DNA of 41,144 nt from Candidatus Dormiibacterota bacterium (GTDB taxonomy: Bacteria; Chloroflexota; Dormibacteria; Aeolococcales; Aeolococcaceae): assembly GCA_003153215.1 (NCBI GenBank), contig PLXL01000061.1, positions 1-41,144 on the forward strand, given 5' to 3'. The notes beneath the pieces were generated by a model that was not told where the DNA came from, did no database searches, and saw nothing but the letters and a program-made list of their open reading frames with translations. This document shows positions 11,276 through 39,316 of this stretch, piece by piece (the first letter of the stretch is position 1; every line of letters starts with the position of its first letter). The position numbers were made by a program, and so were the translations under genes.

Positions 11276-11294
11276 GCTGACACACGCCTCCCGC

Positions 11295-12278: not shown

Positions 12279-12323
12279 TTGTCACTCCCCGTCCAACGGC
12301 ACTCCCGCGCCTGGCCAGAACTC

Positions 12324-22983: not shown

Positions 22984-23662
22984 TCAAGCAGCATGGGCAA
23001 GTTCGCGCTCGGCGACGATGACTCGGAAGACCTCACGTGCGACGTAGCGCTTGAGGCAGCGGATGATCTCCTTCTTGGAGAGGCCCTCGGCGGTTCTGCA
23101 GGCCACGTAGTCCCTGGTTGGGTGATGCCACCGGAGGCGACCGATGACGATGCGCCAGAGGGCGTTGTTGGCCTGCCGGCCGGTCGTCTTGCCGGATGAG
23201 GCTGGCAGCGGCGCCACGCCGCAGAGCTGCGCGAAGCTGGCCTCGGAGCGCAGCCTCTCGGGGTTGTCGCCAGCGGCCACCAGGAGTGCTCCCGCCACAT
23301 CTGCGCCGACGCCCTTGAGGGCGCACAGCTCGGGCGCGACCTCCTGGGTGAGACGCTCGAGCTCGACGTTCAGCGTGGCAATCTCGTTGCCGAGGTGCTG
23401 ATGGCGTCGCGCCAGAACCCGCAGGGTCATCTTGGCCGCCGCCATCGGCGTGGTGATCGGTCTGGGCCGGAAGGCCGCCAGGGTCTCGATGAGACTCCTG
23501 CCGGTGAGCGACCGCAACTGCTCGCGGAGATCAGCCGGAGCCGTGACCAGCAGGGAGTGGATCTGGTTGACGATCTGCATCGTGCTGTGGACGGCCGAGC
23601 GGCGAGCCACCCGCAGGGTGCAGTACGCCGAGTTTGGCCTTGAGCCGGGCTAGGGTACTGAC
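22984..23662 (-). mobile_element. IS110-family recombinase gene, C-terminal (Transposase_20-type) half
   Basis: Minus strand from 23662: SVP*PGSRPNSAYCTLRVARRSAVHSTMQIVNQIHSLLVTAPADLREQLRSL...LKGVGADVAGALLVAAGDNPERLRSEASFAQLCGVAPLPASSGKTTGR...KEIIRCLKRYVAREVF. There is no N-terminal domain upstream. Confidence 0.8.
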
Positions 23663-24017: not shown

Positions 24018-25307
24018 TCACGGGTAGATACCTCGGACCGTGGTGGCTTCGGCGACCCGCTCGACCGCCACCGCGTAGGCGCCCAGGCGAAGCGGTACCC
24101 CGAGGCGCTTGGATGCCTCCCAGGACGAGTTGAAAGCACCGGTGATGATGTGCTCGAGGCGGTTGTTGATCTCGTTCTCCTCCCAGAAGAAGGACTGCAG
24201 ATCCTGCACCCACTCGAAATAGGAGACGATGACCCCCCCGGCGTTGGCGACGATATCGGGGACGACGGTCACCCCGCGCCGGACCAGGATGTCGTCGGCG
24301 TCGGGGGTGGTCGGCCCGTTGGCCGCCTCGAGGATCAGCGAGGCCTTGACCCGCCCCGCGTTGCTCGCCGTGATCTGGTTCTCCAGGGCGGCCGGAACGA
24401 GCACGTCGACCGGCGCCTCGAGCAGCTCGGCGTTGCTGATCGGCCGGGTGCCGGGGAAGCCGACGACCGACCCGGTGCGCTGCTTGTGCTCGATGACCGC
24501 CTTGATGTCCAGCCCCTGCTCGCTGTAGATGCCACCGGCGCTGTCCGAGACGGCCCGGATGCTGAAGCCGTCGTCCGCCATCAGTCCGGCAGCGATGCTC
24601 CCGGCGTTGCCGAAGCCCTGCACCGCGACCGTCAAAGCCTTGGGTTCCCTGTCCAGCCGGCGGCAAGCCTGGAGGGCAACGATCGCCACCCCGCGGCCGG
24701 TGGCCGCGTTACGCCCCTGGCTGCCCCCCACCGAGAGCGGCTTGCCCGTGACGACGGCCGGGACCGAGTAGCCGGCCGCCATCGACACGGTATCCATGAT
24801 CCAGGCCATCACCTGGGGGGTGGTGTTGACGTCGGGGGCGGGGATGTCCCGCTCCGGGCCGATCAGCACCGAGATCTCGCTGGCGTAGCGGCGGGTTAGC
24901 CTCTCCAATTCGCTGCGGCTGAGCCGCTTGGGGTCGACGATCACCCCGCCCTTGGCGCCGCCGAAGGGGATCCCGGCGGCGGCGCACTTCCAGGTCATCC
25001 ACATCGCCAGGGCCTTCACCTCGCTCAAGGTGACCTGGGAGTGGTAGCGAATGCCGCCTTTGGCCGGGCCCCGAACCAGGTTGTGTTGGACCCGGTAGCC
25101 CTCGAACACCCGGACCGACCCATCGTCCATCTTGACCGGGAAGTTGACGATCAGCTGGCGCTGGGGCTCGCGGAGAATCTCCCGTACGCCGTGGTCCAGG
25201 TTGAGGATCTGGGCTGCGGCGTCGAACTGCCGCTGCGCATTGAGCCAGGGATCGTCGACCCCCAGCGATGTGACAACCGTTTCCGTAGCCATGATGTTCA
25301 CCTCCAA
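24018..25307 (-). CDS. gdh: Glutamate dehydrogenase (Glu/Leu/Phe/Val dehydrogenase family)
   Basis: 429 aa with the catalytic-Lys motif IPFGGAKGGV and the dinucleotide-fold GFGNAGS. Typical hexameric GDH length. The start may be the MATETV Met at 25292. Confidence 0.95.
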   Translation of the reverse strand: MEVNIMATETVVTSLGVDDPWLNAQRQFDAAAQILNLDHGVREILREPQRQLIVNFPVKMDDGSVRVFEGYRVQHNLVRGPAKGGIRYHSQVTLSEVKALAMWMTWKCAAAGIPFGGAKGGVIVDPKRLSRSELERLTRRYASEISVLIGPERDIPAPDVNTTPQVMAWIMDTVSMAAGYSVPAVVTGKPLSVGGSQGRNAATGRGVAIVALQACRRLDREPKALTVAVQGFGNAGSIAAGLMADDGFSIRAVSDSAGGIYSEQGLDIKAVIEHKQRTGSVVGFPGTRPISNAELLEAPVDVLVPAALENQITASNAGRVKASLILEAANGPTTPDADDILVRRGVTVVPDIVANAGGVIVSYFEWVQDLQSFFWEENEINNRLEHIITGAFNSSWEASKRLGVPLRLGAYAVAVERVAEATTVRGIYP

Positions 25308-25335
25308 GCGAGTACGTCATTTGCCATGCGAAGTG

Positions 25336-26784
25336 TCAGCTCGGCTCGGTGATCGAGCCCAGCGCCGGGTACAGCGAGCGGAAGCGGCGACGCACCTCTC
25401 GATAGGGGCCGATCCAGTCGGCGACCGGGTCGATGACGTCGGCCACGTGGACGCAGGCGGTGACCGCCTCGACGATGTTCGCGTAGACGCCCGCGGCGAC
25501 CCCGCCGAGCAGCGCCGCGCCGAACGCCGAGCCCTGCTCGCTTCCCATCACCTCGACGGGTAGCTCGAGCACGCTGGCGATGATCTGCAACCAGAGACGA
25601 CTGCGAGCGCCACCGCCCGAGGCGCGCGCCCGTCCTGCCTCCACACCGACGCCCCGAACCGAGTCGAGGCAGTCCGCCAAGCCGAAGGCGACACCCTCCA
25701 GTACCGCCCGGGTCAGCGACCCGCGTCCATGCTCGAGGGAGAGCCCGACAAAGGCTCCTCGCGCGTCCGGGTCGGCGTGTGGCGTCCGCTCACCGGAGAG
25801 ATAGGGCAGGAAGACAAGGCCCTCGCAGCCAGGTGGACAGCTGCGGGCCTCCTCAACCATCTGGTCGTAGCCCGAATCCGGCAGCAGGGTGTCGTGGTAC
25901 CAGGCGAGTGCTCCCGCGGCCGCGAGCATCACCCCCATGACGACCCAGCGCTCCGGGACGGCGTGGCAGAAGGCGTGCACCCGGCCCTGCTCCTCGGCCA
26001 CGAAGCGATCGAGGGCGGCGAGCACCACCCCCGATGTGCCGAGGGCGATGGAGAGCGGACCGGACCCGAGAATGCCGGCGCCGACCGCGGCCGCCGCCTG
26101 GTCACCGCCCCCGGCGGCGACCGGCACGCCGTCCAGGGAGCCGACCCGGTCTGTGCCCTCGGCAAGGTCCGGCAGCCAGCTTCGGGGAATCTCGAACTCA
26201 TCCAGCAGCTCGGCGCTCCACCGCCGGGTGGCGACGTCGAGGAGCAGCGTCCCCGATGCCTCCGCGACATCGGAGACGTGGCCACCGACGAGGGCGTCGC
26301 GGACATAGTCCTTGGGCAGAGCCACCCGCCGGATCCGCGCATAGAGCGCCGGCTCGTGGTGGCGCATCCAGAGCAGCTTGGGAGCGGTGAAACCGGGCAG
26401 AGCGCGGTTTCCGGAGAGCTGTACCAGCCGTTCACGACCGAGCTTCGCCTCGATCGCGGAACATTCGCGAGCCGAGCGACCGTCGTTCCAGAGGATGGCG
26501 GGGCGGATGACCCGATCCGCCGCGTCGAGGCAGACGAGACCGTGCATCTGCCCGGACAGACCGAGCCCCAGGATCTCGACGCCCTCGCTCCGAATACGGT
26601 GCAGTACCGTCTGAGCGGCGGCCACCCAGTCGTCGGGGTCCTGTTCCATCCACCCCGGATGCGGGGAGCGCACCGGGTACTCAGCCTGCGCAGTGGTGGC
26701 CACCGATCCCGTGGTGGGATCGATGGCCACTCCCTTGGTTCCCGTGGTGCCGATATCGATGCCAACCACGCAGCCCCGGCTCAT
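25336..26784 (-). CDS. xylB: Xylulokinase (FGGY carbohydrate kinase family)
   Basis: Start ATG 26784 is preceded by AAGGGAGA. GIDIGTTGTKG N-terminal motif, ...HPGWMEQDPDDW..., and the FGGY C-terminal signature GGGARS.LW.QI.A. Confidence 0.85.
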   Translation of the reverse strand: MSRGCVVGIDIGTTGTKGVAIDPTTGSVATTAQAEYPVRSPHPGWMEQDPDDWVAAAQTVLHRIRSEGVEILGLGLSGQMHGLVCLDAADRVIRPAILWNDGRSARECSAIEAKLGRERLVQLSGNRALPGFTAPKLLWMRHHEPALYARIRRVALPKDYVRDALVGGHVSDVAEASGTLLLDVATRRWSAELLDEFEIPRSWLPDLAEGTDRVGSLDGVPVAAGGGDQAAAAVGAGILGSGPLSIALGTSGVVLAALDRFVAEEQGRVHAFCHAVPERWVVMGVMLAAAGALAWYHDTLLPDSGYDQMVEEARSCPPGCEGLVFLPYLSGERTPHADPDARGAFVGLSLEHGRGSLTRAVLEGVAFGLADCLDSVRGVGVEAGRARASGGGARSRLWLQIIASVLELPVEVMGSEQGSAFGAALLGGVAAGVYANIVEAVTACVHVADVIDPVADWIGPYREVRRRFRSLYPALGSITEPS

Positions 26785-26797
26785 GGAATCTCCCTTG

Positions 26798-26830
26798 GAG
26801 GGTGGGCCCGGCCGCGCCGGGCCCACCCTC
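26798..26830 (-). terminator. Perfect 15-bp GC hairpin between the APC permease and xylB (intercistronic terminator/stabiliser candidate, no U-tract)
   Basis: GAGGGTGGGCCCGGC-cgc-GCCGGGCCCACCCTC. It ends 13 nt upstream of the xylB start codon and abuts its RBS. Confidence 0.5.
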
Positions 26831-26863
26831 AGCGAATCACTCAGACAATTCATTGCGTCCCGA

Positions 26864-28363
26864 CTACTTGGAGACGGCCTCAGGAGCCACTCCGGCGCCG
26901 GGTCCCCCCAGCACCCCGGTCGCCTGCGCTGTGGTGTCCACGGTAATGTGTCGGGCCCGGTAGAAGTACCAGATCACGCCCAGCGCGATCATCACCAGGC
27001 TGCCCTCGCCGGCGACATTTCCGACCGAGGGAATCGTCATGGCACAGCAGATCAACACGCACCAGAGCATGCCGATGTAGGCGAGCGGCTTGTGAGCGCG
27101 ACCCAGACTGAAGGTGCCCGGGATCGCCGGGTGATTCTTATCCAAAACGCCGGCGAGGATGACCAGGAAGTAGGCGGCGAAGATGCCCACCGATGAGACG
27201 CTCGTGATCACCGACTCGACCTTGGCAACGACGGTGAACAGCACCGAGATGACTGCGCACACGATGAGAACCACGTATGGGCTCCGAAAACGGCGGCTGA
27301 CCCGTGTGAGATGCTCCGAGAAGGGCAGCATGTTGTCGCGGGCCATCGAGAATCCGAGCCGGCTCACCGCTGCCAGGTTCATCAGCCCACACGCGAAGAT
27401 GGCGATGAACACCATTGTCATGGACAGCTCGACCAGGATGCTGGGAAGCCGCTGCTGCATGATGTAGAGGAGCGGCGTGCTGCTCGCCTGGGCGGCCGCG
27501 AGGTTGGGGATCGCCATGGTGAAGCCGAGCAAGACGAGGAAGCCCACGCTCGCCGAGATGGCCTCAGCCATGATGATCGCGCGGGGTATGCTGTGCCGCG
27601 GATCCTTCGACTCTTCCGCGAGGTCAGCCGCCCCCTCGTACCCGGTCAGGGTGTACGCGCCCAACAGCGCCGAGACCGCGAAGGCTCCGAGCCCAGCCGA
27701 ACCGGCGGTACTCCCATGCGAGAAGATGAAGCTGGCGTTGGCATTGGGAAGGCCGCGAACCAGCGAATAGATCAGCAGGCCGATGCCCACAGCGGTGATA
27801 CCGATCAGCTCGGTGACCACCGAGAAGTTGTTGACGTAGGCGGTAGCCCGAATACCGACCAGGTGAATGCCGAGGTAGGCCAGGATGACGATCGCCGTCA
27901 CCAATATGATGATGCCCTGGCCGCTTCCCAAGCCGGCATAGGGGGCGAAGTACGCTGCGAAGGCGTAGGCGACACCCGCGGTCCCGGTCAGCCACCCGGC
28001 GAGCGCGAACCATCCTGGGAACCAACCGAACGCGGCGCTGCGCATCCGCGACGCCCATTGGTATGCGTATCCCGCCAGTGGGATGCGTGGTGCCATGTGG
28101 GCGAGATTCAGCGCGATCACCATCTGTCCGACGCCGACGATCACCCAGCTCCACAGAAGCCGAGGGCCCGCGTTGTCGAGACCGAAGCTGTAGTTTGCGA
28201 AGATTCCTGTCGAGATCGAGATCAGCGAGAAAGAGATCGCGAAGGTGGTGAACCGCCCCATCGACCTCCGCAGCACCGGCTTGTAGCCGAAGTCGGTGAC
28301 GGTGCCAGCGTCTGCGTCGTGCTCCTCCAAGCTGGGCGCTCTGGCCGGGTGAACTCTATCCAT
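26864..28363 (-). CDS. APC-superfamily amino acid/amine permease
   Basis: Start ATG 28363 is preceded by AGGAGG. About 500 aa with about 12 TM helices and typical APC N-terminal segments (FTTFAISFSLISISTGIF). The 621-aa track ORF is an over-extension. Confidence 0.85.
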   Translation of the reverse strand: MDRVHPARAPSLEEHDADAGTVTDFGYKPVLRRSMGRFTTFAISFSLISISTGIFANYSFGLDNAGPRLLWSWVIVGVGQMVIALNLAHMAPRIPLAGYAYQWASRMRSAAFGWFPGWFALAGWLTGTAGVAYAFAAYFAPYAGLGSGQGIIILVTAIVILAYLGIHLVGIRATAYVNNFSVVTELIGITAVGIGLLIYSLVRGLPNANASFIFSHGSTAGSAGLGAFAVSALLGAYTLTGYEGAADLAEESKDPRHSIPRAIIMAEAISASVGFLVLLGFTMAIPNLAAAQASSTPLLYIMQQRLPSILVELSMTMVFIAIFACGLMNLAAVSRLGFSMARDNMLPFSEHLTRVSRRFRSPYVVLIVCAVISVLFTVVAKVESVITSVSSVGIFAAYFLVILAGVLDKNHPAIPGTFSLGRAHKPLAYIGMLWCVLICCAMTIPSVGNVAGEGSLVMIALGVIWYFYRARHITVDTTAQATGVLGGPGAGVAPEAVSK

Positions 28364-28434
28364 GGTGCCCTCCTGATGAATTAACGTGGTACCGACTCCA
28401 TACGGCGGATGCCTGGTGCCCGAAGGTGCCCCCT

Positions 28435-29733
28435 TCAGCCGGCCGTGGCCGCGGCTTTCTCCATCCGCTCCAAGACCTCGGCCAGGAGGGCTGGCGAGTG
28501 CGCTGCCGACACCGAGAAGTCGGTGTGGAAGTACACGCCCTTGTCGATACAGGAAGTGAAGAAGCGCCGGCTCAGATCGGCGTCCAGGGCCCGGATGTCC
28601 GCATACGTCCGCACCGGCTCGCGGGTGCCGACGTAGATCCCGAACATGCATCCGAGCCACTGCACACGGGCGGGCAGCGGCGAGCGATCGAAGATCGCCT
28701 GGAGCTCGGTCAGGAAGTCGTCCGTGCATTTGGCGAGCGTCGGGTAGAACTGGGGCTCGGAGAGGATCGTCAGGGTGGCCCGGGCGGCGGCGAGGCCGAT
28801 CAGGTTGCCGGCAAACGTTCCGCCCTGAAGCGCGCCTCTCGGAAGCGGCTTCATCAGGGTGGACATGACGTCCCGCCGGCCGACGATGGCCGAGAGCGGG
28901 ACACCGCTGCTGAAGGCCTTGGACAGCAGCGTGATGTCCGGGGTGATGCCGTAGAGGACCTGAGCCCCGCCGAGCCCGGTCTTGAAGCCCGACAGGACCT
29001 CGTCGAAGATGAGCACCGCCCCGGCCTCCTTGACCAGTTCCTGGGTGGCGGCAAGGTAGCCGTCGAACGGCGTTATGCAGCCGTTGTTGTAGTCGATCGG
29101 GACCATGATCACGGCGGCGACGCGGTCGCGATATTGGCTGAACGCCGCCTCAAGCGCTGGGAAGTCATTCCAGGGAACGGGCACGATGGTGTCCGCCACC
29201 GCCTGGGGAATCCCGCTCGAACAGAAGATCACCTTCGACGGCCGCCCGCCGGGGTTGTCCGCGTCGGTGTTCGACCACATCGAGTTGAGCATCGCGTAGT
29301 CACTGCCACCGTTGAAGTGACCGTCGACCTTCAGGACGATTTCGCGGCCGGTATGGGCACGACAGAGCCGGATGGCGGTGGAGACCGCCTCGCTCCCGGA
29401 GGCGACGAAGCGCACCCGCTCGGCGGAGGGCACGATCTCGGTGAGTCGGTGTGCGACCTCCTCGCCCAGCCCCGTCTCGTAACCGATGACGACGCCGAAT
29501 TCCAGGATCTCCCGGATGGCGCGGACCACGTCCGGGTGAGCGTGGCCCAGAACCGTGCTCCCGTGGGCCATGAACATGTCGAGATAACGGCGTCCGTCCG
29601 TTGTCTCGATGGTTGCGCCGCTCGCTCGGCGGACCTCCAGGTGCTGGCCGGTGTACGGGTTGATACGGAACTGCGAGGAGATGCCTCCCAGCAGACTTTG
29701 ACCTTCGTCAGCGTGCGTTACCATGGGACCCAC
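28435..29733 (-). CDS. Class-III PLP-dependent aminotransferase (glutamate-1-semialdehyde 2,1-aminomutase-like)
   Basis: LIFDEVLSGFKTGLGGAQ (the DEVMTGFR-type block of GSA-aminomutase relatives), VASGSEAV and HGST motifs. The likely real start is ATG 29724, behind AGGAG. Confidence 0.85.
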   Translation of the reverse strand: MGPMVTHADEGQSLLGGISSQFRINPYTGQHLEVRRASGATIETTDGRRYLDMFMAHGSTVLGHAHPDVVRAIREILEFGVVIGYETGLGEEVAHRLTEIVPSAERVRFVASGSEAVSTAIRLCRAHTGREIVLKVDGHFNGGSDYAMLNSMWSNTDADNPGGRPSKVIFCSSGIPQAVADTIVPVPWNDFPALEAAFSQYRDRVAAVIMVPIDYNNGCITPFDGYLAATQELVKEAGAVLIFDEVLSGFKTGLGGAQVLYGITPDITLLSKAFSSGVPLSAIVGRRDVMSTLMKPLPRGALQGGTFAGNLIGLAAARATLTILSEPQFYPTLAKCTDDFLTELQAIFDRSPLPARVQWLGCMFGIYVGTREPVRTYADIRALDADLSRRFFTSCIDKGVYFHTDFSVSAAHSPALLAEVLERMEKAAATAG

Positions 29734-29862
29734 TCCTAGCTAGTGCCTATGACGCAATGCATGCAAATACTCCAACTGCGCTGCGGCGGGCTCGCGCCAC
29801 CCTCCCCGCTGTTCCACCTCCCTCCCACGATCCCTCCGCGGCCACAACAGACCCGGGCAACA

Positions 29863-30798
29863 TCAGTTGTGCGGTGATGCTGAACCCTCCTCGGCCAGGA
29901 CGGCGGCGCCGATGGCGCCGGCGAGCGGGCCCAGCCGGACCGCGACAATCGGCTCGCCGGTAACGAAATGGGGGGCTCGTGCACGGCTCTCCTCGACACC
30001 GGGGAGCAGCAGGTCGAGGTACTCGGAAACGCTGCCACCGATGACTGTCAGGGTCGGGCCATAAACGCTCTCTAGGACCGCCAGTCCGCGGCCCACCCGA
30101 CCGCCATGGGCGGCGAAGGCGGCAGCGGCAGCCGCGTCCCCGACTCTCGCCGCCGCCGCCGCGCTCACCACGCTCGTCCCGGAGAGGGAGAGGCCCGCCG
30201 AATGAATCTCCGCCTCGAGTCGGGTGCGCGATGCGCTCTGCTCCCAGCAGCCGACGGTACCGCAGTAGCAACTGCTGGTCTCGGCGGTCACCCCGATGTG
30301 GCCGGCTTCGGGGTGCCCCCCATCGGCACCTCGATAGGGGTAGCCGCCGTCGATGAAGGCAACGCCGACCCCGGTCCCGATGGTCACCAGCAGCATCCGC
30401 CGGGCTCCCTTCCCGGCTCCGACCCGGTGCTCGCCCACGGCCGCGGCCACAGCGTCGTTCTCGATGACGACGGGCACGCCGCTCACCGATCGGAGCAGGG
30501 ACGGCACGTCGAATCCCGAGAACCATGGGAGCGTGTTCCAGTTCAAGATCACGCCGGTGGCAGGATCGATGGGACCGCTGGCACCGATGCCGATAGCCTC
30601 GACGGCGCTGCCGGCCGGTACAACGCTCCGAACCAGATGCCAGAGTTCACGCACCCGTCGCGCCGGCTCGCCCTGGCCAAGGCTCGAGGTGGAGACAACC
30701 GCGTCGCCCACGGTTCGACCGGCACTCCAGCCGACCACCCGGGTGGCCGTCCCCCCGATGTCGACACCTGCCACTACGGGCCGATCTGGGGAGGTCAC
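29863..30798 (-). CDS. ROK-family sugar kinase (canonical zinc motif present)
   Basis: VAGVDIGGT, ENDAVAAAVGE, and GHIGVTAETSSCYCGTVGCWEQ (CxCGxxGC). GTGA overlap with the upstream SIS gene. Confidence 0.85.
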   Translation of the reverse strand: MTSPDRPVVAGVDIGGTATRVVGWSAGRTVGDAVVSTSSLGQGEPARRVRELWHLVRSVVPAGSAVEAIGIGASGPIDPATGVILNWNTLPWFSGFDVPSLLRSVSGVPVVIENDAVAAAVGEHRVGAGKGARRMLLVTIGTGVGVAFIDGGYPYRGADGGHPEAGHIGVTAETSSCYCGTVGCWEQSASRTRLEAEIHSAGLSLSGTSVVSAAAAARVGDAAAAAAFAAHGGRVGRGLAVLESVYGPTLTVIGGSVSEYLDLLLPGVEESRARAPHFVTGEPIVAVRLGPLAGAIGAAVLAEEGSASPHN

Positions 30799-31883
30799 AG
30801 CTGCGAGGTCACCTTCTGACCGAAGCGGAACTCGCCCGGCGTCACCCCGGCAGCCCGCGCCGTGGCGGCGCAGAGCAGCTGAATGAACTTTGCGTCCATA
30901 GCCAGCTGACTCAGCTCGTGAGTGGCCGGCGTGACCACCGGCTCCGCGGTGCTCGACGGGGCTGCGCCGACCTCGACAGCGAGTGAGCCCGTCGCTCCCA
31001 CATCGTCGGCCAGCCGGCTCAGGCTGGTCCGCCCTCCGGAGCCGGTGAAGACGACCGCCACGAGGCCAGGGCCAGCGAGCTCCAGCGGGCCGTGGCGGAA
31101 CTCGCCGCCGATGAAGCTCTCCGCGGGGAGCTTGGTAACCTCCTTGAGGAGCAGCGCTCCCATGGAGACGCTCGCCACCTGGTTCTCCGAGCCGATGAGC
31201 ACGACCCGGGGAGTGGCGGCCTGCACGATCCGCGCGGCCACCGAGTTGAGCCGCTCACCGCTGGGCGACCATGGCTCGAGTTCTCTCGCCGCCACCCGAA
31301 CGGCCGCGTAAGTAGACTCGGTGCTGCCACCGTCCACGCCCGCGAAGAGGAGGTGATGGGCGGCCAGCGAGTTGAGGTAGCTCTTGGTGCTGACGGCGCT
31401 CTCGACTCCCGCCATCAGCTCAAGGACCAAGTCGCCAGCCGATGCCAGCGGACTGGTCGCGTCGTTGGTGATCCCGATCAGCAGCCTCGGTCTGCGGATG
31501 TCCGTCTCCAAGCGCTGGAGCAGGGCGATGAGCTCGCCGCTCCGTCCGGACTGGGAGGTGATCACCAGCAGGGTGCGGTCGGTGATCAGCTGAGGTGAAT
31601 CGAGCAGCGCCGCAGTGCTGAGCCACCAGGCTGGCAGCCGGGCAGCGACGAGATGCCGCCAGCTGGGCAGCGCACTGTGGTGCGAGGTCCCCATGCCGGT
31701 GAGCACGACACGATCGAAACCCCTGACGTCGGGCAGCCGCAGTGGGTGGGCGATCACCGCTTCGACCAGGTTCCGAAGAGCGGCCGACTGCTCAGCGATG
31801 TCGCTATCGAAGGCGCTCACGACCGCTGGCTGTCGATACGTGGTCTCCCAGGCCAACTCTTCTCCTCCCAGCAACCCGCTCAC
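30795..31883 (-). CDS. Double-SIS-domain sugar-phosphate isomerase/deaminase/deglycase (AgaS/FrlB/GlmS-C-like)
   Basis: 362 aa with GMGTSHHSA and TSQSGRSGELI motifs. GTGA overlaps on both sides (DeoR upstream, ROK downstream). Confidence 0.85.
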   Translation of the reverse strand: MSGLLGGEELAWETTYRQPAVVSAFDSDIAEQSAALRNLVEAVIAHPLRLPDVRGFDRVVLTGMGTSHHSALPSWRHLVAARLPAWWLSTAALLDSPQLITDRTLLVITSQSGRSGELIALLQRLETDIRRPRLLIGITNDATSPLASAGDLVLELMAGVESAVSTKSYLNSLAAHHLLFAGVDGGSTESTYAAVRVAARELEPWSPSGERLNSVAARIVQAATPRVVLIGSENQVASVSMGALLLKEVTKLPAESFIGGEFRHGPLELAGPGLVAVVFTGSGGRTSLSRLADDVGATGSLAVEVGAAPSSTAEPVVTPATHELSQLAMDAKFIQLLCAATARAAGVTPGEFRFGQKVTSQL

Positions 31884-32662
31884 GCCACGCAGAAGTTGAC
31901 GTCGACCGCACCGAAGGCCGACTGCTGCCGAGGGTCGATGGCCGAGTCGGTGACGATCGTGTCGACCTCCTCCACAGCGCAGATGCGCCCGAACGCGGTC
32001 TTCCCGAACTTGCTCGCGTCACAGGCCACGATGCAGCGGTTGGCAGCTCTCAGCGCGGCCCGCTTCACCGCTGTGTCATCGAGGTTCCACTCGGTGATTC
32101 CGGCGCTGATGTGGATCCCGCTGGCAGTCATGATGTAAACGTCGAAACGGTGGTCTTCGAATATCCGGAGCGCAGCCGGTCCGATCAGGCTGCGCTCGTC
32201 AGGTCGAACGATGCCTCCGGCGATCATCAGCCGGACCGCGGTCGACGCCGTCAGAACGTCGGCAACTCGCAGCGAGAGTGTGCAGATGGAGATGTTTCGG
32301 TGCAGAAGCACCTCGGCGATGGCCGCTGCGGTCGTTCCCCCATCGAGGATGACGGTCTCTCCGTCGCCGATCCTGCTCCCCACCAGAGTGGCGATCTCTT
32401 GCTTCGCCGCCGCCCTGAGACTGGTGCGAACGCTAAACGGAGGCTCATAGCTCCCACTCACCACCGGCAGAGCACCACCGTGGATCCGGCGGATGGTGCC
32501 CTCGCTGTCGAGTGCCGCCAGATCCCGCCGGATCGTCATCTCCGAGACGCCGAGGTGGTGGGTGAGATCGGCAATGCTCAGGCGACCCCTCTCGGTGACG
32601 AACTCGATGATCGCCTGCCGACGCTCCTGGGTCGGTTTCATCTCGTGGCTATCCCCACCCAC
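31880..32662 (-). CDS. DeoR-family transcriptional regulator
   Basis: N-terminal HTH ERRQAIIEFVTERGRLSIADLTHHLGVSEMTIRRDLAAL plus a DeoR C-terminal sensor domain. About 255 aa. Confidence 0.9.
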   Translation of the reverse strand: MGGDSHEMKPTQERRQAIIEFVTERGRLSIADLTHHLGVSEMTIRRDLAALDSEGTIRRIHGGALPVVSGSYEPPFSVRTSLRAAAKQEIATLVGSRIGDGETVILDGGTTAAAIAEVLLHRNISICTLSLRVADVLTASTAVRLMIAGGIVRPDERSLIGPAALRIFEDHRFDVYIMTASGIHISAGITEWNLDDTAVKRAALRAANRCIVACDASKFGKTAFGRICAVEEVDTIVTDSAIDPRQQSAFGAVDVNFCVA

Positions 32663-32722
32663 CAGGGGAACCTCTTTCGAGCACGACGTCCACCGTCCGC
32701 CCCCACTCGCGCCGCCGACACG

Positions 32723-33745
32723 CTAGCCGGCCAGCCACGCCTGCACCTTGTCCAGGTAGGAGTCGGTGATGGGAAGGTGGACCGCGGCCGTGTACCAGAG
32801 GTTGCCCGCTTTGTGCCAGTACTCCGGCATGAACCTGAGCCCCGCCCGAACGTCGTCCCAGGTGATGCCCATCGCCTCCGGCTGGTAAGCAACGCCGATG
32901 CGGTCGAATCTGGACTTGATGAACTCGGGGTCGTTGCCCTGCAGGAAGCTCATCAGCAGCACCCCGAGGCTCACGATCTGACCGTGGGAGAACGGGCGAT
33001 GGGTCAGGTACTCGAGCGAGTAGAAGAAGGTGTGCTCGCTGCCCTCGATGGGACGAGGGTTCCAGCCGGTGTTGTTGAATGATGCGCCACCCCAGCGCAG
33101 GGCATTCATGAGCGCCCGGATGCCCTCGTCGGAGACGTCGTGGACCGCATCCGCGGCATCCAGCACACCGTCAAGAATGGCCCGCGACTGGCCGACCCAG
33201 TATTCGTCATACGGCCACTGGGGCTCGCACTTGCCCTCGCGCTGAGCCATCGCCCAGTCCCAATGGGCTGTGTAGTAGCAGGCGATGTCGCCAACGCTGG
33301 AACGGTTGATGGCAAGCGGTGCGGTCCGGATCACGTCGTAGTCGACGTACACCGTCTCGGGAACCGCCCACCCCACGTACTTGAGAACACCCTCGTCGCG
33401 GACAGCCGCGCGCTGGGCGAAGGGGGCGTTGACGCTCATCGAGGTCGGCACCTGGAAGAGGGGTAGCCGTCGCCGCCAAGCGATATACTTAGCAACGTCG
33501 ATGGCCATGCCGCCACCGAGGCCGACCACCACCTCGACGGAGGGGAGGTCGCGGACCAGGGCTTCTAGGTCCCGCACCTCGAGGGAGTCGACCAAGTGCA
33601 CGTGGTGCCGACTGTGGGTAAACGCCCGCTCGAAACGGGGCCAGAGGTCGGCCATGCTGACGACCAAGTAGGGCTCGCTGAGCGACTCCCGGAGCTTCGA
33701 CACGAGGTCACGTCCGTAGACCACATTGAACAGTTGGATGCTCAT
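32723..33745 (-). CDS. Glycerol-1-phosphate dehydrogenase/AraM-like member of the iron-containing alcohol dehydrogenase/DHQS-like superfamily
   Basis: 340 aa with the GLGGGMAIDVAKYIA nucleotide-binding motif and VPTSMS. Metal-site His residues lie in the C-terminal half. Substrate not assignable. Confidence 0.65.
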   Translation of the reverse strand: MSIQLFNVVYGRDLVSKLRESLSEPYLVVSMADLWPRFERAFTHSRHHVHLVDSLEVRDLEALVRDLPSVEVVVGLGGGMAIDVAKYIAWRRRLPLFQVPTSMSVNAPFAQRAAVRDEGVLKYVGWAVPETVYVDYDVIRTAPLAINRSSVGDIACYYTAHWDWAMAQREGKCEPQWPYDEYWVGQSRAILDGVLDAADAVHDVSDEGIRALMNALRWGGASFNNTGWNPRPIEGSEHTFFYSLEYLTHRPFSHGQIVSLGVLLMSFLQGNDPEFIKSRFDRIGVAYQPEAMGITWDDVRAGLRFMPEYWHKAGNLWYTAAVHLPITDSYLDKVQAWLAG

Positions 33746-33792
33746 GATCGCCTCTCATGAACCGAATTTTTAGAGAGCATAAACATCTGGAG

Positions 33793-33843
33793 TGGTCAAG
33801 TCAAGCAAATTCCTGATCGAAATCGAGGTCAGATTTGACCAGG
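33793..33843. promoter_or_regulatory. Inverted repeats in an AT-rich gap upstream of the G1PDH-like gene (candidate operator)
   Basis: TGGTCAA (33793-33799) pairs with TTGACCA (33835-33841). The local palindrome GGTCA-gatt-TGACC lies at 33827-33840. The gap is much more AT-rich than its surroundings. Confidence 0.3.
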
Positions 33844-33889
33844 CAGAACGCGGGCGCCGGACCACCTCGCCCGCCGCTGGGGCTGCCCG

Positions 33890-34828
33890 TCAGGGGCCAC
33901 CCGTCAGCTCCTCACGCCACGGAGGATCGGCTCCCGGCCTGGTGCAGGTGAGGGCTCCGACCTGACAGGCGAACCGGAGCATCGCCTCGAGCTCAGCGTC
34001 AGAGCTGGGGACGGCAGCCACGCCCGCTGACCCATGCTCCAGAAGCCACGCGACAACGGCCGCCCCAAAGGCGTCACCCGCCCCGATAGTATCGACCACG
34101 GCCACTTCCGACGGATGGGCCCGAGCCCGGCAGCGCCGGGTTGCACCGATGGCACCTTCAGCTCCGAGGGTGACCAGCGCAGCTCGCGCACCGGCATCGA
34201 GGATCCGGTCGACAGCGGCTTCGGCGGTCAGCTCCGGGTACAGCCAGGCGACGTCGTCATCGCTCGCCTTGACCAGAGCATCCATGGAAATCAGCCGCAG
34301 CAGCCGGGCACGGTACGTGTCCTGATCCGCCCCTCGAACAGTCCGAATGTTCAGATCGAGCATCAGGAGATGTCGTCCGCGCTCTCTCTCCGCCAATGAT
34401 TCCAGGGTGCGTGCGATCGGTTCGAGAAGCAGGCCGAGCGTCCCCATGTGAAGCACAGCGACCTCGGCGCCCAGCTCGGCCGGGACCATTTCGGCGGTCA
34501 GGTACGGCGCCGACGTCCCGTCCACATAGAAGCTGTACGTCGCAGCGCCGCCCCTGTCGAGGGGGGCGATCGCGAGGGTGGTGGGCTCATCGCCCCAGCT
34601 GGTCGTCGAGAGGTCGACACCGTCCGCCGCGAGCTGACCGGACAGCAGCTTTCCGAATGGGTCGGACGAGAGACGCCCCAGAAAGGCGGTGGGAACCCCG
34701 AGGCGGGCCAGCGCGCGAGCGGTGTTGAACGGTCCGCCCCCGGGATGAGGCTGCAGCCGCCCATCCGAGTCAGGGACGAGGTCGATCAGCGCTTCGCCGC
34801 AGATCAGGGCGCGCGCCCTGTCAGTCAT
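33890..34828 (-). CDS. PfkB-family carbohydrate kinase (fructokinase/ketohexose-phosphate kinase-like)
   Basis: 312 aa. N-terminal GEALIDLVP...GGGPFNTA and C-terminal DTIGAGDAFGAA motifs. Confidence 0.85.
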   Translation of the reverse strand: MTDRARALICGEALIDLVPDSDGRLQPHPGGGPFNTARALARLGVPTAFLGRLSSDPFGKLLSGQLAADGVDLSTTSWGDEPTTLAIAPLDRGGAATYSFYVDGTSAPYLTAEMVPAELGAEVAVLHMGTLGLLLEPIARTLESLAERERGRHLLMLDLNIRTVRGADQDTYRARLLRLISMDALVKASDDDVAWLYPELTAEAAVDRILDAGARAALVTLGAEGAIGATRRCRARAHPSEVAVVDTIGAGDAFGAAVVAWLLEHGSAGVAAVPSSDAELEAMLRFACQVGALTCTRPGADPPWREELTGGP

Positions 34829-35132
34829 CGGCAGCCACCGCCGTCAAAGACCGGCGCCGTCGCCGTGCGCCCATGGGTATCTCCCCAGGTGGCGTGTCGG
34901 AGCCAGCGTCATCTGTCTTCCACCATCCCCTCGGTAGCCTCAAGATACTTCCGCCTGGCTCACGCCGCTGCCGGAACACCATGAGCTCGAGATCGAGGTT
35001 CAGCATCCTGGCGGCCTCGAGTGGTGGCATTCCGGGAGGGACGCCGATCTTGACCAACTGCTCATACGACATCGATGCCGCAGACGCCTCGTATCCCGCC
35101 TCGCTCAAGGTTCGGGGGCGGATGCTTGTCAC
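34821..35132 (-). CDS. Hypothetical protein, possible excisionase/MerR-like HTH; may be a fragment
   Basis: 103-aa ORF whose stop overlaps the PfkB start by 8 nt. PPLEAARMLNLDLELMVFRQRREPGGSILRLPRGWW loosely resembles HTH_17-type DNA-binding domains. The C-terminal third is low-complexity. Confidence 0.3.
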   Translation of the reverse strand: MTSIRPRTLSEAGYEASAASMSYEQLVKIGVPPGMPPLEAARMLNLDLELMVFRQRREPGGSILRLPRGWWKTDDAGSDTPPGEIPMGARRRRRSLTAVAADD

Positions 35133-35150
35133 GAAGGGAGATCATGGCCT

Positions 35151-35543
35151 GTCATCGACGACCACCGGCATCAGGAGTTCCTCACCTTCCTGCAATTGGT
35201 CGCCAAGCGCCATCCCAAGCTCGAGATCCACATGGTGCTCGACAACTACCGGACGCACAAGCACCCGGTGGTGCGGGAGTGGCTGGAGGCCAACCCTCGC
35301 TTCCACCTCCACTTCACGCCAACGAGTGCGAGCTGGATGAATCAGGTCGAGACGTGGTTCTCGATCCTCCAACGCAAGACGATTCGGCGAGGCGTGTTCC
35401 GCAGCGTTGGCTCCCTCCAGAGCGCCGTTCACCGCTTCATCGACGCGTGGAACGACCCCAAGAAGCCCTTCGCCTGGGTGAGGACCTCCGACGAGATTCT
35501 CGCCAAGGCCATACCGAAAGCTATTTCAGCCGGGCTGCACTAG
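35151..35543 (+). mobile_element. IS630-family transposase, 3' (DDE) remnant with the right end of the element
   Basis: IDDHRHQEFLTFLQLVAKRHPKLEIHMVLDNYRTHKHPVVREWLEANPRFHLHFTPTSASWMNQVETWFSILQRK...PFAWVRTSDEILAK is the canonical IS630 C-terminal domain. No N-terminal half is present. Confidence 0.8.
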
Positions 35544-35801
35544 GACGTCGACCCCGTCGAATCGCGCGTCCGCCGCGCCCACCAACCGGGCCGCTCCGGC
35601 AGCGGTGGTCACGTCTACGTGGACGAACTCGGCCTGATCGCCCGGGAGGAGGCGCTCCCGGGCTACATCGCTCAGGCTGTTCTCGTTGAGGTCACCGATG
35701 GTGACGGTCGCTCCCTCCTCCACGAAGAGGAGGGCGACGGCACGTCCGATGCCGGACGCGCCTCCGGTCACGATCGCGGACTTGCCCCGCAGTCGATCCA
35801 C
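35526..35801 (-). pseudogene. SDR gene truncated after about 85 codons by the IS630 end
   Basis: MDRLRGKSAIVTGGASGIGRAVALLF...ARFDGVDVLV, then non-homologous QPG-stop where NNAG is expected. The junction is at the TA of 35541-35542. Confidence 0.75.
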
Positions 35802-35835: not shown

Positions 35836-36990
35836 TCAGCCCTCCACCGAAAGCCGAAAACTGACCGTCTCGCGGAAGACGTCTCCCGGATCGAGCCGGG
35901 CCGAGGCGAAATGTGGATGGTTGGGGGCATCAGGGAAGTGTTGCGCTTCCAAGGCGAGGCCGTCGCCTTGGCGGTAGATGCCACCGCCCGTCCCCACAAG
36001 CGTCCCCTGGAGACCGTTCCCCGTGTAGAGCTGCAGCCCGGGCTGGGTCGTGCACACCTCCAGCACCCGCCCCGACGACGCCTCCGTCACCCGCGCCGCT
36101 CGACGAAGGGCGCCGGGCTCCGATTGGCGCAGCGCGTAGTTGTGGTCGTAGCCGTGTCCGATGAGGAGCTGGTCGTCGGCCGTCCGGATCCGCTCTCCGA
36201 TGGCCACCGGGCGGGTGAAGTCGAAGGGCGTCCCCGCCACCGGGGCGATCTTCCCGGTCGGCACCTCGTGGGGGGTTATCGGGTTGTAGCCATCGGCGTC
36301 GATCTGGAGCAGGTGGTCGTAGATGCTCCCCGAGCCCTCGCCCGCCAGGTTCCAGTAGGTGTGGTTGGTCAGGTTGAGGACGGTGGTGGCGTCGGTGACG
36401 GCCTCGAAGCTGAGGGTGAGCCGATTGTCCTCGTCGAGGCTGTAGGTGGCGGTCACCTCGAGCGTCCCCGGGAAGCCCATCTCCCCGGCCGGGCTGGCAT
36501 AGGCAAGGCGGACGCCCGCTGTCTCCGCGGTCGAGGCGAGGGTGGCCCTCCACACCTTCTGGTCGAAGCCGACGGTCCCCCCGTGCATGGCGTGCCACTC
36601 CATGTTCTTGGGGATCCGGACGGTGGTGCCGTCGAGGGTGAAGATGCCGTCGCCAATGGGGTTGGCATAGCGTCCGATCAAGGCGCCGAAGTAGACGTTG
36701 GCCCCCTGCGGGTTGACCTGGTTAGGAGCCGGGTTGTAGCGGCGGTAGTCGTCCAGGGTGCTGAAGCCGAGGACCACGTTGCTCGGCCGGCCCTCGCGGT
36801 CCGGCACCTCGATGGTCTGGACGATGCCGCCGTAGTTCAGCAGCCGGACCCGCATCCCGTGGCTGTTGGTGAGGGTGTACCGTCTCACCTCCTCGCCGTC
36901 CGCCCAGCCGAAGGGCTCGTCGGCCACCCGGAGCGTGTCGTGCGACAGCGGAGACGCGGACGTCCGAGCCTCCGAACTAAACGTGGTCAT
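35836..36990 (-). CDS. galM: Aldose 1-epimerase (galactose mutarotase family)
   Basis: 384 aa with typical blocks: GFDQKVW, NLTNHTYWNL, GYDHNY and ALEAQHFPDAPNHPHF. Confidence 0.9.
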   Translation of the reverse strand: MTTFSSEARTSASPLSHDTLRVADEPFGWADGEEVRRYTLTNSHGMRVRLLNYGGIVQTIEVPDREGRPSNVVLGFSTLDDYRRYNPAPNQVNPQGANVYFGALIGRYANPIGDGIFTLDGTTVRIPKNMEWHAMHGGTVGFDQKVWRATLASTAETAGVRLAYASPAGEMGFPGTLEVTATYSLDEDNRLTLSFEAVTDATTVLNLTNHTYWNLAGEGSGSIYDHLLQIDADGYNPITPHEVPTGKIAPVAGTPFDFTRPVAIGERIRTADDQLLIGHGYDHNYALRQSEPGALRRAARVTEASSGRVLEVCTTQPGLQLYTGNGLQGTLVGTGGGIYRQGDGLALEAQHFPDAPNHPHFASARLDPGDVFRETVSFRLSVEG

Positions 36991-37020
36991 GACCTCATCT
37001 CCTCGTCGTCGCGATATGCA

Positions 37021-37884
37021 TCATTCACTCGGGAGGACCGGCAGTGCGGACGCCTCGTCGCAGGCGACCGTGCAACCGGGGTGCCCCTGGCAGAGGGTGA
37101 CCGGGAAGCGGACGTCAGGCTCGCCGAGCAGCAGCACCCGGAGGATGAACTGCTTCCAGGGGCCGCCGTCGGTGATCAGGAGGATCTTGTGGGCAGCCAG
37201 GATGTCGCGCATCCCGACGGTGATGGCCATCGGTGGGACGGCGAAGCTGTTGCCGCCGGCGGTGCGCTGGCTCAGGGCGACGAAGGTGTCATCCAGGAGC
37301 TGGACCATCCTGGTCCGGCCGTTGCGCAGCTCATCCAGGCTCACCCGGGTCCACTTGGACTCGGGGGTCTCGTTGAAGCCCACGTGGCCGCGATAGCCGA
37401 AACCGGCGAAGACTGTGTCGACGCCTCCGGCGGCAGCGATGGCGGCCGAGTAGTCCTCGATTCGCGTCGGGTCGGGGAAGACCACCTGCTCCGGCGGGTT
37501 CCTCAGTTCCGGCCGGAGGTTGGCGTAGATCTCCCGCTGCGCGTAGCCGCGGAAACTGTATGTGCTCTCGGCGGGAATCCAGCGCCCCTCCCAATCGCAG
37601 AACTCGTCCATGTGGAAGCACCAGACGTTCTTCCACGAGAGCCCCTCCTGGTTGGACAGCTCGACGAGCCTGCGGTAGTGCGCCTTGGGGCCTATGGGTA
37701 GGATCCAGCGGAGCGGCCGGCCGTCCCGGTTGGCGGCGCGGATCTCCTCAGCCATGTACTGGGCCAGCCACTCGTAAAGGACGGACGTGTCCGGGTAGAC
37801 CGTCAGGGGGAGTTTGGCGGCCCGCTTCAGCTCCTCGACGGGCATGGCGAGCTGCTGGTCGCTGACCACTGTGCCTGGAATCAT
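37021..37884 (-). CDS. Glucosamine-6-phosphate deaminase/6-phosphogluconolactonase-family protein (long, divergent NagB-like)
   Basis: 287 aa. The FHMDEF block, GFGYRGHVGFNE and ITVGMRDILAAHKILLI match the NagB/Pgl fold family. Function not assignable. Confidence 0.75.
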   Translation of the reverse strand: MIPGTVVSDQQLAMPVEELKRAAKLPLTVYPDTSVLYEWLAQYMAEEIRAANRDGRPLRWILPIGPKAHYRRLVELSNQEGLSWKNVWCFHMDEFCDWEGRWIPAESTYSFRGYAQREIYANLRPELRNPPEQVVFPDPTRIEDYSAAIAAAGGVDTVFAGFGYRGHVGFNETPESKWTRVSLDELRNGRTRMVQLLDDTFVALSQRTAGGNSFAVPPMAITVGMRDILAAHKILLITDGGPWKQFILRVLLLGEPDVRFPVTLCQGHPGCTVACDEASALPVLPSE

Positions 37885-37942
37885 CTGTCTTGCACCTCTG
37901 CATGCATGTTCTGCCGCGTTCTGATCGTGCTCACTTCACCGA

Positions 37943-38929: not shown

Positions 38930-39316
38930 GAGGCACTAGGTACATGGGAGGCTCGGGTAGCTGCGGCGGCCTCCTTGGCGGCGGCGGCCTCAGTCATGAC
39001 CCGGCCTCCTTGGCGGGTCACCCGCACCGCGAAGACGACCCCGATCATGAAGACCAGGCAGCAGAAGACGTGGCCCGGTCCACACTTCGCCCATGGCCAG
39101 AAGTCGTCCGCGAACCGCGGTCTTGGAGCGTCCCGGGAGGCAGAGGACGGAGTCGTCTATGACCGGGACCGTCCCACGGTGCGGAAGCTCCCCACTGGAC
39201 GGTGCCGGGGCCCTCTCCCGCCCGCCCACGCCACCGTCGGAACCCGCCCGCGAAGACCCCGGTCATGGCGCCTCTTTCTGAGAACTAGTTTCGTTGGTCC
39301 GCATAAAGTAGTACCC

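Follow-up and report, generated by a model that had tools for sequence, protein, structure and literature searches.

In Escherichia coli, the fructoselysine (Amadori) system frlABCDR brings together an APC permease, a PfkB kinase and an SIS enzyme acting on a phosphorylated amine-sugar adduct, and the galactosamine (aga) system brings together a DeoR-family repressor and an SIS deaminase/isomerase. NagB-II with its kinase, and the isomerase domain of GlmS, are further points of reference for double-SIS proteins. In azasugar clusters a class-III aminotransferase of family PF00202, GabT1, adds an amino group at C2 of fructose-6-phosphate, yielding an aminopolyol phosphate; a phosphatase (which can be of the HAD type) and the aminopolyol dehydrogenase GutB1 complete the three-gene set (PMC8382821). 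We describe here a gene block on the minus strand of a 41,144-nt contig of Candidatus Dormiibacterota bacterium (PLXL01000061.1, assembly GCA_003153215.1), the whole of which is termed the window. The block shares with frl its permease, PfkB and SIS classes, with aga its DeoR and SIS classes, and with the NagB-II and GlmS group a double-SIS protein with GlmS motifs adjoining a kinase that would make its sugar-6-phosphate substrate. As judged from gene order and identity across genomes, it is a fusion, specific to its lineage, of two modules that are widespread, uncharacterised and found apart from each other in other genomes.

Two modules and their union in one block

The strands of the window were scanned by listing open reading frames, and the minus-strand genes were searched with Pfam and NCBIfam profiles. 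The block and its parts are:

26769..35045, minus strand: conserved 8.3-kb block, from PfkB through the APC permease and hairpin, recurring in other genomic flanks
33890..34828, minus strand: PfkB-family sugar kinase, fructokinase-like (PF00294, E 4e-42)
33776..33804, minus strand: promoter-like element TTGACT-17-TATGCT, upstream of the Fe-ADH_2 gene
32723..33745, minus strand: Fe-ADH_2/glycerol-dehydrogenase-like NAD(P) oxidoreductase, resembling glycerol-1-phosphate dehydrogenase (G1PDH) (PF13685, E 6e-16)
31880..32662, minus strand: DeoR/GlpR-family regulator (HTH_DeoR and DeoRC)
30795..31883, minus strand: double-SIS, GlmS-isomerase-domain-like enzyme (PF01380, two stretches)
29863..30798, minus strand: ROK-family sugar kinase without a helix-turn-helix domain (PF00480, E 5e-46)
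28435..29724 (or to 29733, alternative start), minus strand: HemL-like class-III aminotransferase, dependent on pyridoxal phosphate (PLP) (PF00202, Aminotran_3)
26864..28363, minus strand: APC-superfamily permease, amino-acid/choline (ACT) type (PF13520, AA_permease_2, E 2e-47; TIGR00907, 167 bits)
26798..26830, minus strand: terminator-like hairpin with a 15-bp stem and 3-nt loop, closing the operon

The intergenic distances from the PfkB gene to the downstream xylB are 144, 60, −4 (GTGA), −4 (GTGA), 129 or 138, 71 and 79 nt, the fifth of these, between ROK and the aminotransferase, being set by the choice of aminotransferase start. DeoR is the sole regulator within the block and the APC permease its sole transporter. 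A preliminary description of this DNA had named nine minus-strand genes, all of which, with their domain calls, are borne out by the profile searches; its gap sizes, its two GTGA overlaps and its post-permease hairpin are likewise as described, while the AT-richness that it ascribed to the 144-nt gap holds for the promoter-proximal half and not for the remainder. Because four independent metagenome assemblies have an identical gene order over ∼15–21 kb, the arrangement is not an assembly artefact or chimera.

Module A can be described, from the gene content of the compared loci, as a putative polyol/alcohol oxidoreductase with DeoR, a GlmS-like double-SIS and ROK; relatives as a rule also carry an APC permease of their own type, unlike the window's. 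Module B, on the same footing, consists of the HemL-like aminotransferase, a transporter and a PfkB sugar kinase, joined in some relatives by Gdh, an FGGY kinase, a ketose epimerase or an aldolase. Two surveys separate them, one anchored on the SIS gene (80 genome loci from one-genome-per-species contigs) and one on the aminotransferase gene (40 loci; L numbers below denote compared loci). Of the 80 loci, 71 have a ROK gene within 7 kb of the SIS gene, in nearly every case directly beside it, and 51 have a DeoR gene nearby; the aminotransferase family of the window is in none of the 80, the SIS locus of L017 having only a 27%-identical class-III enzyme beside it. SIS is present in only four of the 40 aminotransferase-anchored loci, all four from the window's clade. 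The preliminary description had taken the genes for one pathway and had proposed neighbourhood conservation as the check; across both surveys the full set is co-conserved only within the window's clade, the aminotransferase and permease separating elsewhere in bacteria from the oxidoreductase, DeoR, SIS and ROK.

The layout APC permease–DeoR–GMC oxidoreductase–SIS–ROK occurs in ∼25 loci, whose carriers are Mycolicibacterium, Gordonia, Tsukamurella, Arthrobacter, Paenarthrobacter, Microbacterium, Nocardioides, Streptomyces and some Proteobacteria, and the SIS–ROK core is found in Actinomycetota, Chloroflexota and Proteobacteria. The oxidoreductase slot holds a GMC flavoenzyme in most relatives and Fe-ADH_2 in the window, as also in L088 and L017. 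L088, the nearest standalone relative, reads Fe-ADH_2 (85% identical)–APC of the other type–DeoR (70%)–SIS (56%)–ROK (51%), and L017, from Bailinhaonella thermotolerans, has the same layout with an Fe-ADH_2 72% identical to the window's. Taken together, uncharacterised standalone modules resemble the window at 67–70% identity in DeoR (L012, L014, L027, L088), 43–56% in SIS and 42–51% in ROK, and have in common with it a TTGAC-TCGAACA promoter/operator motif; the window differs in lacking their permease and in carrying the aminotransferase and ACT-type permease pair downstream of ROK instead.

A GMC or Fe-ADH_2 oxidoreductase is present in 27 of the 28 loci with the module-A permease versus 5 of the 52 without it (nominal Fisher p = 3e-15). 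SIS–ROK variants without an oxidoreductase have an MFS sugar porter (Enterobacterales, Streptomyces hygroscopicus and a Klebsiella pneumoniae IncF plasmid cassette) or ABC transporters (Chloroflexota). The simplest reading is that SIS and ROK are a generic pair that would phosphorylate and then deaminate or isomerise an amino sugar, the oxidoreductase being a funnel step in which that amino sugar is made from a cationic, more reduced compound.

The plasmid cassette, on the conjugative IncF plasmid NZ_CP050373.1 of a clinical K. pneumoniae isolate (L131, 116713-119617), comprises four genes between insertion sequence (IS) elements, DeoR being divergent from SIS–ROK–MFS sugar porter and the products being only generically named. 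Its SIS is 37% identical to that of the window, and SIS homologues that also match at 37% are on about 100 other Klebsiella plasmids; no counterpart of the enterobacterial DeoR-SIS-ROK-MFS cassette was found among 5,426 E. coli genomes. In the cultured actinomycete B. thermotolerans, the class-III aminotransferase of L017 (2471-3883; 470 aa) lies with an MFS transporter upstream of Fe-ADH_2–APC–DeoR–SIS–ROK, which could be a second, independent association of such an enzyme with module A or a coincidence.

The aminotransferase family of module B, 60–75% identical in metagenome-assembled genomes named Gaiellaceae, Dormibacteria, Chloroflexota and Actinomycetia, is always in carbohydrate-type operons and never with heme genes in the loci surveyed. 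Its contexts are a ROK-type regulator–PfkB–aminotransferase–APC (L105, L108, L110, L111); LysR or IclR divergent from aminotransferase–APC (L005-7, L099, L130); LacI with APC–an unknown gene–psicose-3-epimerase-like–aminotransferase–PfkB–Gdh (L094, L101-103, L113, L116, L117); and DeoR or LacI with aminotransferase–ABC transporter–PfkB–FGGY kinase–class-II aldolase (L093, L100, L109), the regulators across loci being LysR, ROK, LacI, DeoR or IclR. The window's permease is 70% identical to that following the aminotransferase in L005 and only 26–28% identical to that of the DeoR–SIS–ROK loci, and so belongs to the aminotransferase module. Over its full length the window's PfkB is 37–38% identical to, and clusters with, the PfkB that comes after the aminotransferase in L094 and L113. 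Gdh stands next to or close to aminotransferase–PfkB in four loci of one related clade (L094, L113, L116, L117) and is there 82–88% identical to the window's Gdh.

Some module-B loci have further features. L109 (2716-5945) and L124 (1317-5722) have a DegT-family aminotransferase and an Fe-ADH_2/DHQS-like gene (33–35% identical to the window's) beside the HemL-like gene, and L124 additionally has a GH4 glycosidase and a ROK gene nearby, which hints at a wider family of amino-sugar loci pairing a dehydrogenase with an aminotransferase. L094 (4219-5948) and its Dormibacteria-type relatives (L101-103, L113, L116, L117) encode a conserved 317-aa protein with no Pfam or NCBIfam match and an NTP_transf_5-like protein, both between the permease and the epimerase/aminotransferase genes.

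The union of the modules is found in three lineages, those of the window, L096-98 and L129. In L096-L098 one 8278-bp segment matches window 35045-26769 at 93.4% nucleotide identity (blastn), with flanks unrelated to the window's except for a HAD gene (68% nucleotide and 65% protein identity). The block proteins are 90–97% identical there, and this figure set against 65% for the flanking HAD suggests either transfer of the block or a paralogous HAD gene. L129 has Fe-ADH_2–DeoR–SIS–ROK–aminotransferase–APC at 92, 78, 77, 74, 86 and 88% protein identity, respectively, and the fusion is gone in L130, whose aminotransferase is 78% identical. The permease proper to module A and the regulator proper to module B are both absent from the fused block, which in the window's clade is stable and behaves as a functional unit.

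Beyond the conserved block lie:

25336..26784, minus strand: XylB xylulokinase (equivalog, 514 versus cutoff 380 bits)
24018..25292, minus strand: Gdh
22984..23610, minus strand: IS110-family (Transposase_20) remnant in the right flank beyond gdh (PF02371, E 6e-9)
35196..35543, plus strand: DDE_3 transposase remnant within an SDR gene, left flank (PF13358, E 1e-14)
35526-35801: adh_short (broken SDR) fragment beside the DDE_3 remnant

The two transposase remnants, the left one in a truncated SDR gene (35142-35801), bracket the PfkB-to-gdh region. The homology of L097 ends ∼20 nt into xylB, and for this reason xylB was probably present in the common ancestor and lost in L097; L129 is without xylB at that position. 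The preliminary description had listed xylB and gdh after the hairpin. Both lie beyond the conserved terminator hairpin and, since they are missing from near relatives, are dispensable neighbours outside the unit.

The window has at least two amino-sugar-like loci. A second, paralogous ROK–SIS pair is on the plus strand, with a ROK kinase (16047-17045) overlapping an SIS gene (17042-18043) whose product is 30% identical to the first SIS, and a ROK-family regulator (14317-15621, plus strand) is nearby. The adjoining Opp/Dpp-type ABC transporter operon (8282-14030, minus strand; SBP_bac_5, two permeases and two ATPases) coincides exactly with a dip in G+C, to 55–61% over window 9000-14000 versus 64–72% elsewhere, and this drop suggests its separate acquisition. 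A further unit at window 35836-40492 is made up of GalM (35836-36990), a protein with weak resemblance to NagB/6-phosphogluconolactonase (37021-37884), another PfkB (37943-38929) and, divergent from these, a ROK-type regulator (∼39290-40492). The PfkB of this unit, 59–61% identical to the one directly upstream of the aminotransferase in L105 and L110, may belong functionally with the aminotransferase module. The regulator was considered as an orthologue of the one upstream of PfkB–aminotransferase–APC in L105 and L110, and was rejected at only 24% identity.

Transcription signals and catalytic residues

The element TTGACT-17-TATGCT, 31 nt before the start of the Fe-ADH_2 gene, is the only sigma-70-like match in 12.4 kb. 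L097 and the standalone L088 retain both its −35 and its −10, as does L129 over the part of the region that was extracted; there the motif is TTGAC(T/A)TCGAACA ... TAT(G/T)CT. TCGAAC is present in 13 of 21 module-A upstream regions versus 26% of random windows from the same loci (nominal p = 6e-4), and is a plausible candidate for a DeoR operator overlapping the −35. A second candidate operator, a 13-mer (12/13 matching) common to the intergenic stretches upstream of PfkB and of Fe-ADH_2, where TGGTCAA repeats also occur, was dropped because these motifs are not conserved in relatives; TCGAAC is better supported.

The hairpin after the permease has a perfect 15-bp stem (−44.2 kcal/mol, z = −3.7 for its 79-nt intergenic stretch), and in L129 an equally strong hairpin with a different outer stem occupies the same place (−44.5 kcal/mol, z −4.1). 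In the ROK–aminotransferase gap there is no stable fold (z = +2), no terminator and no conserved promoter, only a ribosome-binding site and the start codon being conserved. The conserved promoter, this featureless gap and the post-permease hairpin together point to a six-gene transcript from Fe-ADH_2 to APC, with PfkB as a separate upstream unit. The operon is probably repressed by DeoR, and ROK would be translationally coupled to SIS through their GTGA overlap. A Rfam scan of the whole window gave no RNA family at gathering score.

All 32 homologues compared keep the SIS motifs GTS, SQSG, STK, KE and RHGP and a C-terminal Lys unchanged, and these align with the structures of GlmS and 3fj1. 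The GlmS-type catalytic set is present as the S110-Q111-S112-G113 phosphate loop, K247-E248, the ring-opening H264 and K357, and the GlmS isomerase model matches at E 5e-26. With these residues the protein is equipped for Amadori/Heyns-type interconversion between the 6-phosphates of amino sugars and keto sugars, and it is predicted to be an amino-sugar-6-phosphate deaminase/isomerase or deglycase. In ROK, PF00480 spans residues 10–304 of 311, and the translation contains the ATP motif VDIGGT (DxGxT) and the Zn motif CYCGTVGC (CxCGxxGC).

The aminotransferase keeps the PLP lysine (K272) and S20 and R23, the equivalents of HemL Ser29 and Arg32, all invariant in 32 homologues. Since this Ser/Arg pair anchors the substrate carboxylate in glutamate-1-semialdehyde aminomutase (GSAM), its retention points to an anionic, maybe phosphorylated, substrate. 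Glu406 is missing (in the alignment to HemL structures, F-S replaces the HemL FEAGF and three residues are deleted), and the lid loop, with an insertion, has been reshaped. In the GSAM structure described by Hennig et al. in 1997, Glu406 is said to repel or help exclude 2-oxo acids; its loss would thus favour a true transaminase. The constant partnership of aminotransferase and PfkB fits phosphorylation before transamination. Public annotations (P0001, P0121, P0267-P0269) name block products ‘glutamate-1-semialdehyde 2,1-aminomutase’, ‘glucosamine--fructose-6-phosphate aminotransferase (isomerizing)’ and ‘glycerol-1-phosphate dehydrogenase’; equivalog scores and gene context argue against all three names.

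A proposed pathway and its rivals

Our preferred reading, to which we give an even chance of being right, is that an amino sugar or amino polyol is imported and its nitrogen removed by an oxidise-phosphorylate-deaminate route and a phosphorylate-transaminate route, both ending in a ketose-6-phosphate. The block would be a six-gene operon (Fe-ADH_2, DeoR, SIS, ROK, aminotransferase, APC) with PfkB just upstream, arisen by fusing two older catabolic modules, and its amino-acid/choline-type permease would import a cationic amino sugar or amino polyol. In route A the oxidoreductase would turn the substrate into an amino-aldose or amino-ketose, ROK would phosphorylate it, and the GlmS-like SIS enzyme would release NH4+ by Amadori/Heyns-type isomerisation, giving a ketose- or aldose-6-phosphate. 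In route B PfkB would phosphorylate the substrate, and the HemL-like enzyme, using a 2-oxo acid, would convert its amine to a carbonyl by transamination and so yield a ketose phosphate and glutamate. A sugar-phosphate intermediate would probably relieve DeoR repression. Glutamate from route B could be recycled by the neighbouring Gdh, an idea of the preliminary description that gains independent support from the four loci of one related clade where aminotransferase, PfkB and Gdh stand in a row or close together. The same description had proposed uptake of an amine-bearing sugar or polyol, a kinase step, and SIS action or transamination, and this is still the best reading, not as one co-conserved pathway. 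As a substrate class we would provisionally suggest a 2-amino-2-deoxy-alditol or some amino sugar close to it.

The sequence comparisons show the gene families and their catalytic motifs, how the modules were joined, the conservation of the block, and its promoter and terminator; the order and direction of the reactions and the substrate we infer. Several points weigh against this reading. Two parallel routes to one product would be redundant, and natural sources of free amino-alditols are, to our knowledge, poorly documented. Co-transcription across the 129–138-nt gap is likewise only inferred. The window's own copy of the operator is degenerate (TTGACTTGACCA). The compared loci are not phylogenetically independent, so that the p-values are nominal. 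For the GMC enzymes of relatives, choline oxidase is the closest match (E 2e-51); the position of its cation-binding Glu312 is Cys in them, so a choline-like mode of cation binding in these partner enzymes is not supported and was rejected.

Each operon enzyme would be used once if the substrate were a diamino or omega-amino sugar (e.g. a 2,6-diamino-2,6-dideoxyhexose or a 6-amino-6-deoxy sugar) degraded in series, the aminotransferase turning the terminal amine into an aldehyde, Fe-ADH_2 taking this to the alcohol, ROK phosphorylating and SIS removing the 2-amino group to leave fructose-6-phosphate. This would explain why the modules fused and were kept, and an alcohol oxidoreductase with a PLP aminotransferase is the known logic of CH2OH/CH2NH2 interconversion on aminoglycoside sugars, as in the oxidoreductase–aminotransferase pairing NeoQ/NeoB. 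Reductase-type genes (SDR, Fe-ADH_2-like, GFO) do lie near the aminotransferase in L130, L109, L124, L093 and L094, but its universal partner is a kinase, not a reductase, and each module works without the other in most genomes. NeoB, the precedent for an aminoglycoside-sugar aminotransferase (PMC6927412), is not among the 60 PDB matches listed for the block enzyme, where HemL and other families rank higher, and we regard such a series as unlikely. It is decidedly unlikely, in our estimate, that the modules have no shared substrate and are two unrelated catabolic operons joined by an IS-mediated rearrangement. Their independence across the 80 and 40 loci, the IS remnants on both sides and the crowding of the window with other sugar genes, including the second ROK–SIS pair, would all fit such a fortuitous adjacency; however, the order is kept in L129 at 74–92% protein identity with all genes intact, and the block has one regulator, one permease, a single conserved promoter and terminator, and a junction gap without a terminator.

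The HemL-like enzyme might instead be an aminomutase converting fructosamine-6-phosphate (1-amino-2-keto) to glucosamine-6-phosphate (2-amino-1-aldehyde), which SIS would then deaminate. The chemistry would be that of 5-aminolevulinate to glutamate-1-semialdehyde, HemL is the closest characterised relative (∼40% identity, E 1e-73), and APC and PfkB (with the ketose 3-epimerase of L094-type loci) would mirror frlA, frlD and frlC with the enzyme in the place of frlB, giving a direct reason for joining a GlcN-6-P-type deaminase. We consider this very improbable, since Glu406, the GSAM residue linked to the exclusion of 2-oxo acids, is missing and the lid loop has been reshaped, since loci with PfkB, an FGGY kinase and a class-II aldolase and no deaminase need a nitrogen-free product, and since an SIS deglycase could take fructosamine-6-phosphate directly, making a mutase unnecessary. 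Biosynthesis of an azasugar or aminocyclitol-like compound by the aminotransferase, the dehydrogenase and a nearby HAD phosphatase is hardly credible. Azasugar clusters do combine a PF00202 aminotransferase with a dehydrogenase and with a phosphatase, which may be of the HAD type (PMC8382821), and a HAD gene adjoins the block in L096-98; yet this HAD gene is not part of the block and shows only 65% identity between lineages, the dehydrogenase is Fe-ADH_2 and not MDR, and the block has an importer-type permease, two kinases, a deaminase-type SIS and a catabolic-type DeoR. No sub-motif of the azasugar consensus SGNxFRxxxFPNxxxxxxxLxVPxPYCxRC (PMC8382821) was found in the aminotransferase by regular-expression search, and the enzyme is for that reason not a member of the azasugar family.

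The HemL-like family, which is highly conserved in uncultured soil phyla and is always accompanied by sugar kinases and transporters, could conceivably be the first catabolic amino-sugar/amino-polyol-phosphate aminotransferase, or else an amino-sugar-phosphate 2,1-aminomutase, a proposal that we hold as doubtful. In soil and peat, amino sugars and related amine-bearing carbohydrates make up a large store of organic nitrogen. If the proposal is true, the family and the oxidoreductase–SIS–ROK set would be hitherto unrecognised routes by which abundant soil bacteria obtain carbon and nitrogen from such compounds, with the fused operon as a natural case of both routes under one regulator. The fused operon would also predict a substrate class common to both modules, and cultured carriers are available in B. 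thermotolerans, Mycolicibacterium brisbanense, Gordonia asplenii, Arthrobacter and Paenarthrobacter.

Comparison with described systems

No characterised member of either module was found in NCBIfam, PDB or the searchable literature, nor, in the literature, a characterised system with these gene sets. Equivalog membership was judged by NCBIfam bit scores against the model cutoffs, and every model tested on block proteins fell below its cutoff, only XylB, outside the block, passing. The scores were:

FrlD (NF007321) on PfkB: 54.1 bits versus cutoff 247
Fructokinase, the best NCBIfam match of PfkB: 138 bits versus cutoff 450
AgaS (TIGR02815) on SIS: 18.6 bits versus cutoff 529
NagB-II (NF046059) on SIS: 62.7 bits versus cutoff 430
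AgaR (NF040755) on DeoR: 175.7 bits versus cutoff 260
HemL (TIGR00713) on the aminotransferase: 312.8 bits versus cutoff 527.3
HemL (NF000818) on the aminotransferase: 317.6 bits versus cutoff 398
G1PDH (EgsA/AraM, NF002022) on the Fe-ADH_2 enzyme: 124.4 bits versus cutoff 413, only the Fe-ADH_2 superfamily domain passing its Pfam cutoff

These scores agree with the earlier claim that the layout matches no canonical system, and limit the resemblance to aga and frl claimed alongside it to the superfamily level. They also suggest that the Fe-ADH_2 enzyme is not a true G1PDH and the aminotransferase not HemL. The latter shares with HemL its fold, PLP lysine and Ser/Arg anchoring motif, the ∼40% identity being that of the structure alignment, and differs from it in the missed cutoffs, the lost Glu406 and the lid-loop insertion.

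From frl the block differs in having no FrlC (no AP_endonuc_2 gene), a DeoR and not a GntR regulator, and an aminotransferase and an oxidoreductase without frl counterpart; a ketose-3-epimerase-like gene, as in frl, is found in the related aminotransferase loci and not in the block. The SIS protein has the catalytic motifs that FrlB-type enzymes share with GlmS, and FrlB is absent from its six NCBIfam matches at E ≤ 1e-3, a library that may hold no FrlB model. Of the aga complement, neither a phosphotransferase system transporter, nor the AgaA deacetylase, nor a tagatose-bisphosphate aldolase was found in 24018-35045. In PDB and NCBIfam, SIS has its best matches in the isomerase domain of GlmS, in NagB-II and in ‘putative phosphosugar isomerases’, whereas the block lacks the nagA gene and GlcNAc transporter of NagB-II systems and has its SIS gene linked instead to an oxidoreductase, DeoR and an aminotransferase.

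Against the azasugar cluster, in which the dehydrogenase is of another family, the block has no phosphatase and its context is catabolic; it reads like the reverse of the azasugar route, with kinases replacing the phosphatase. By analogy, the cluster would work like a NagB-II/kinase or frl-type amino-sugar route and is a member of neither.

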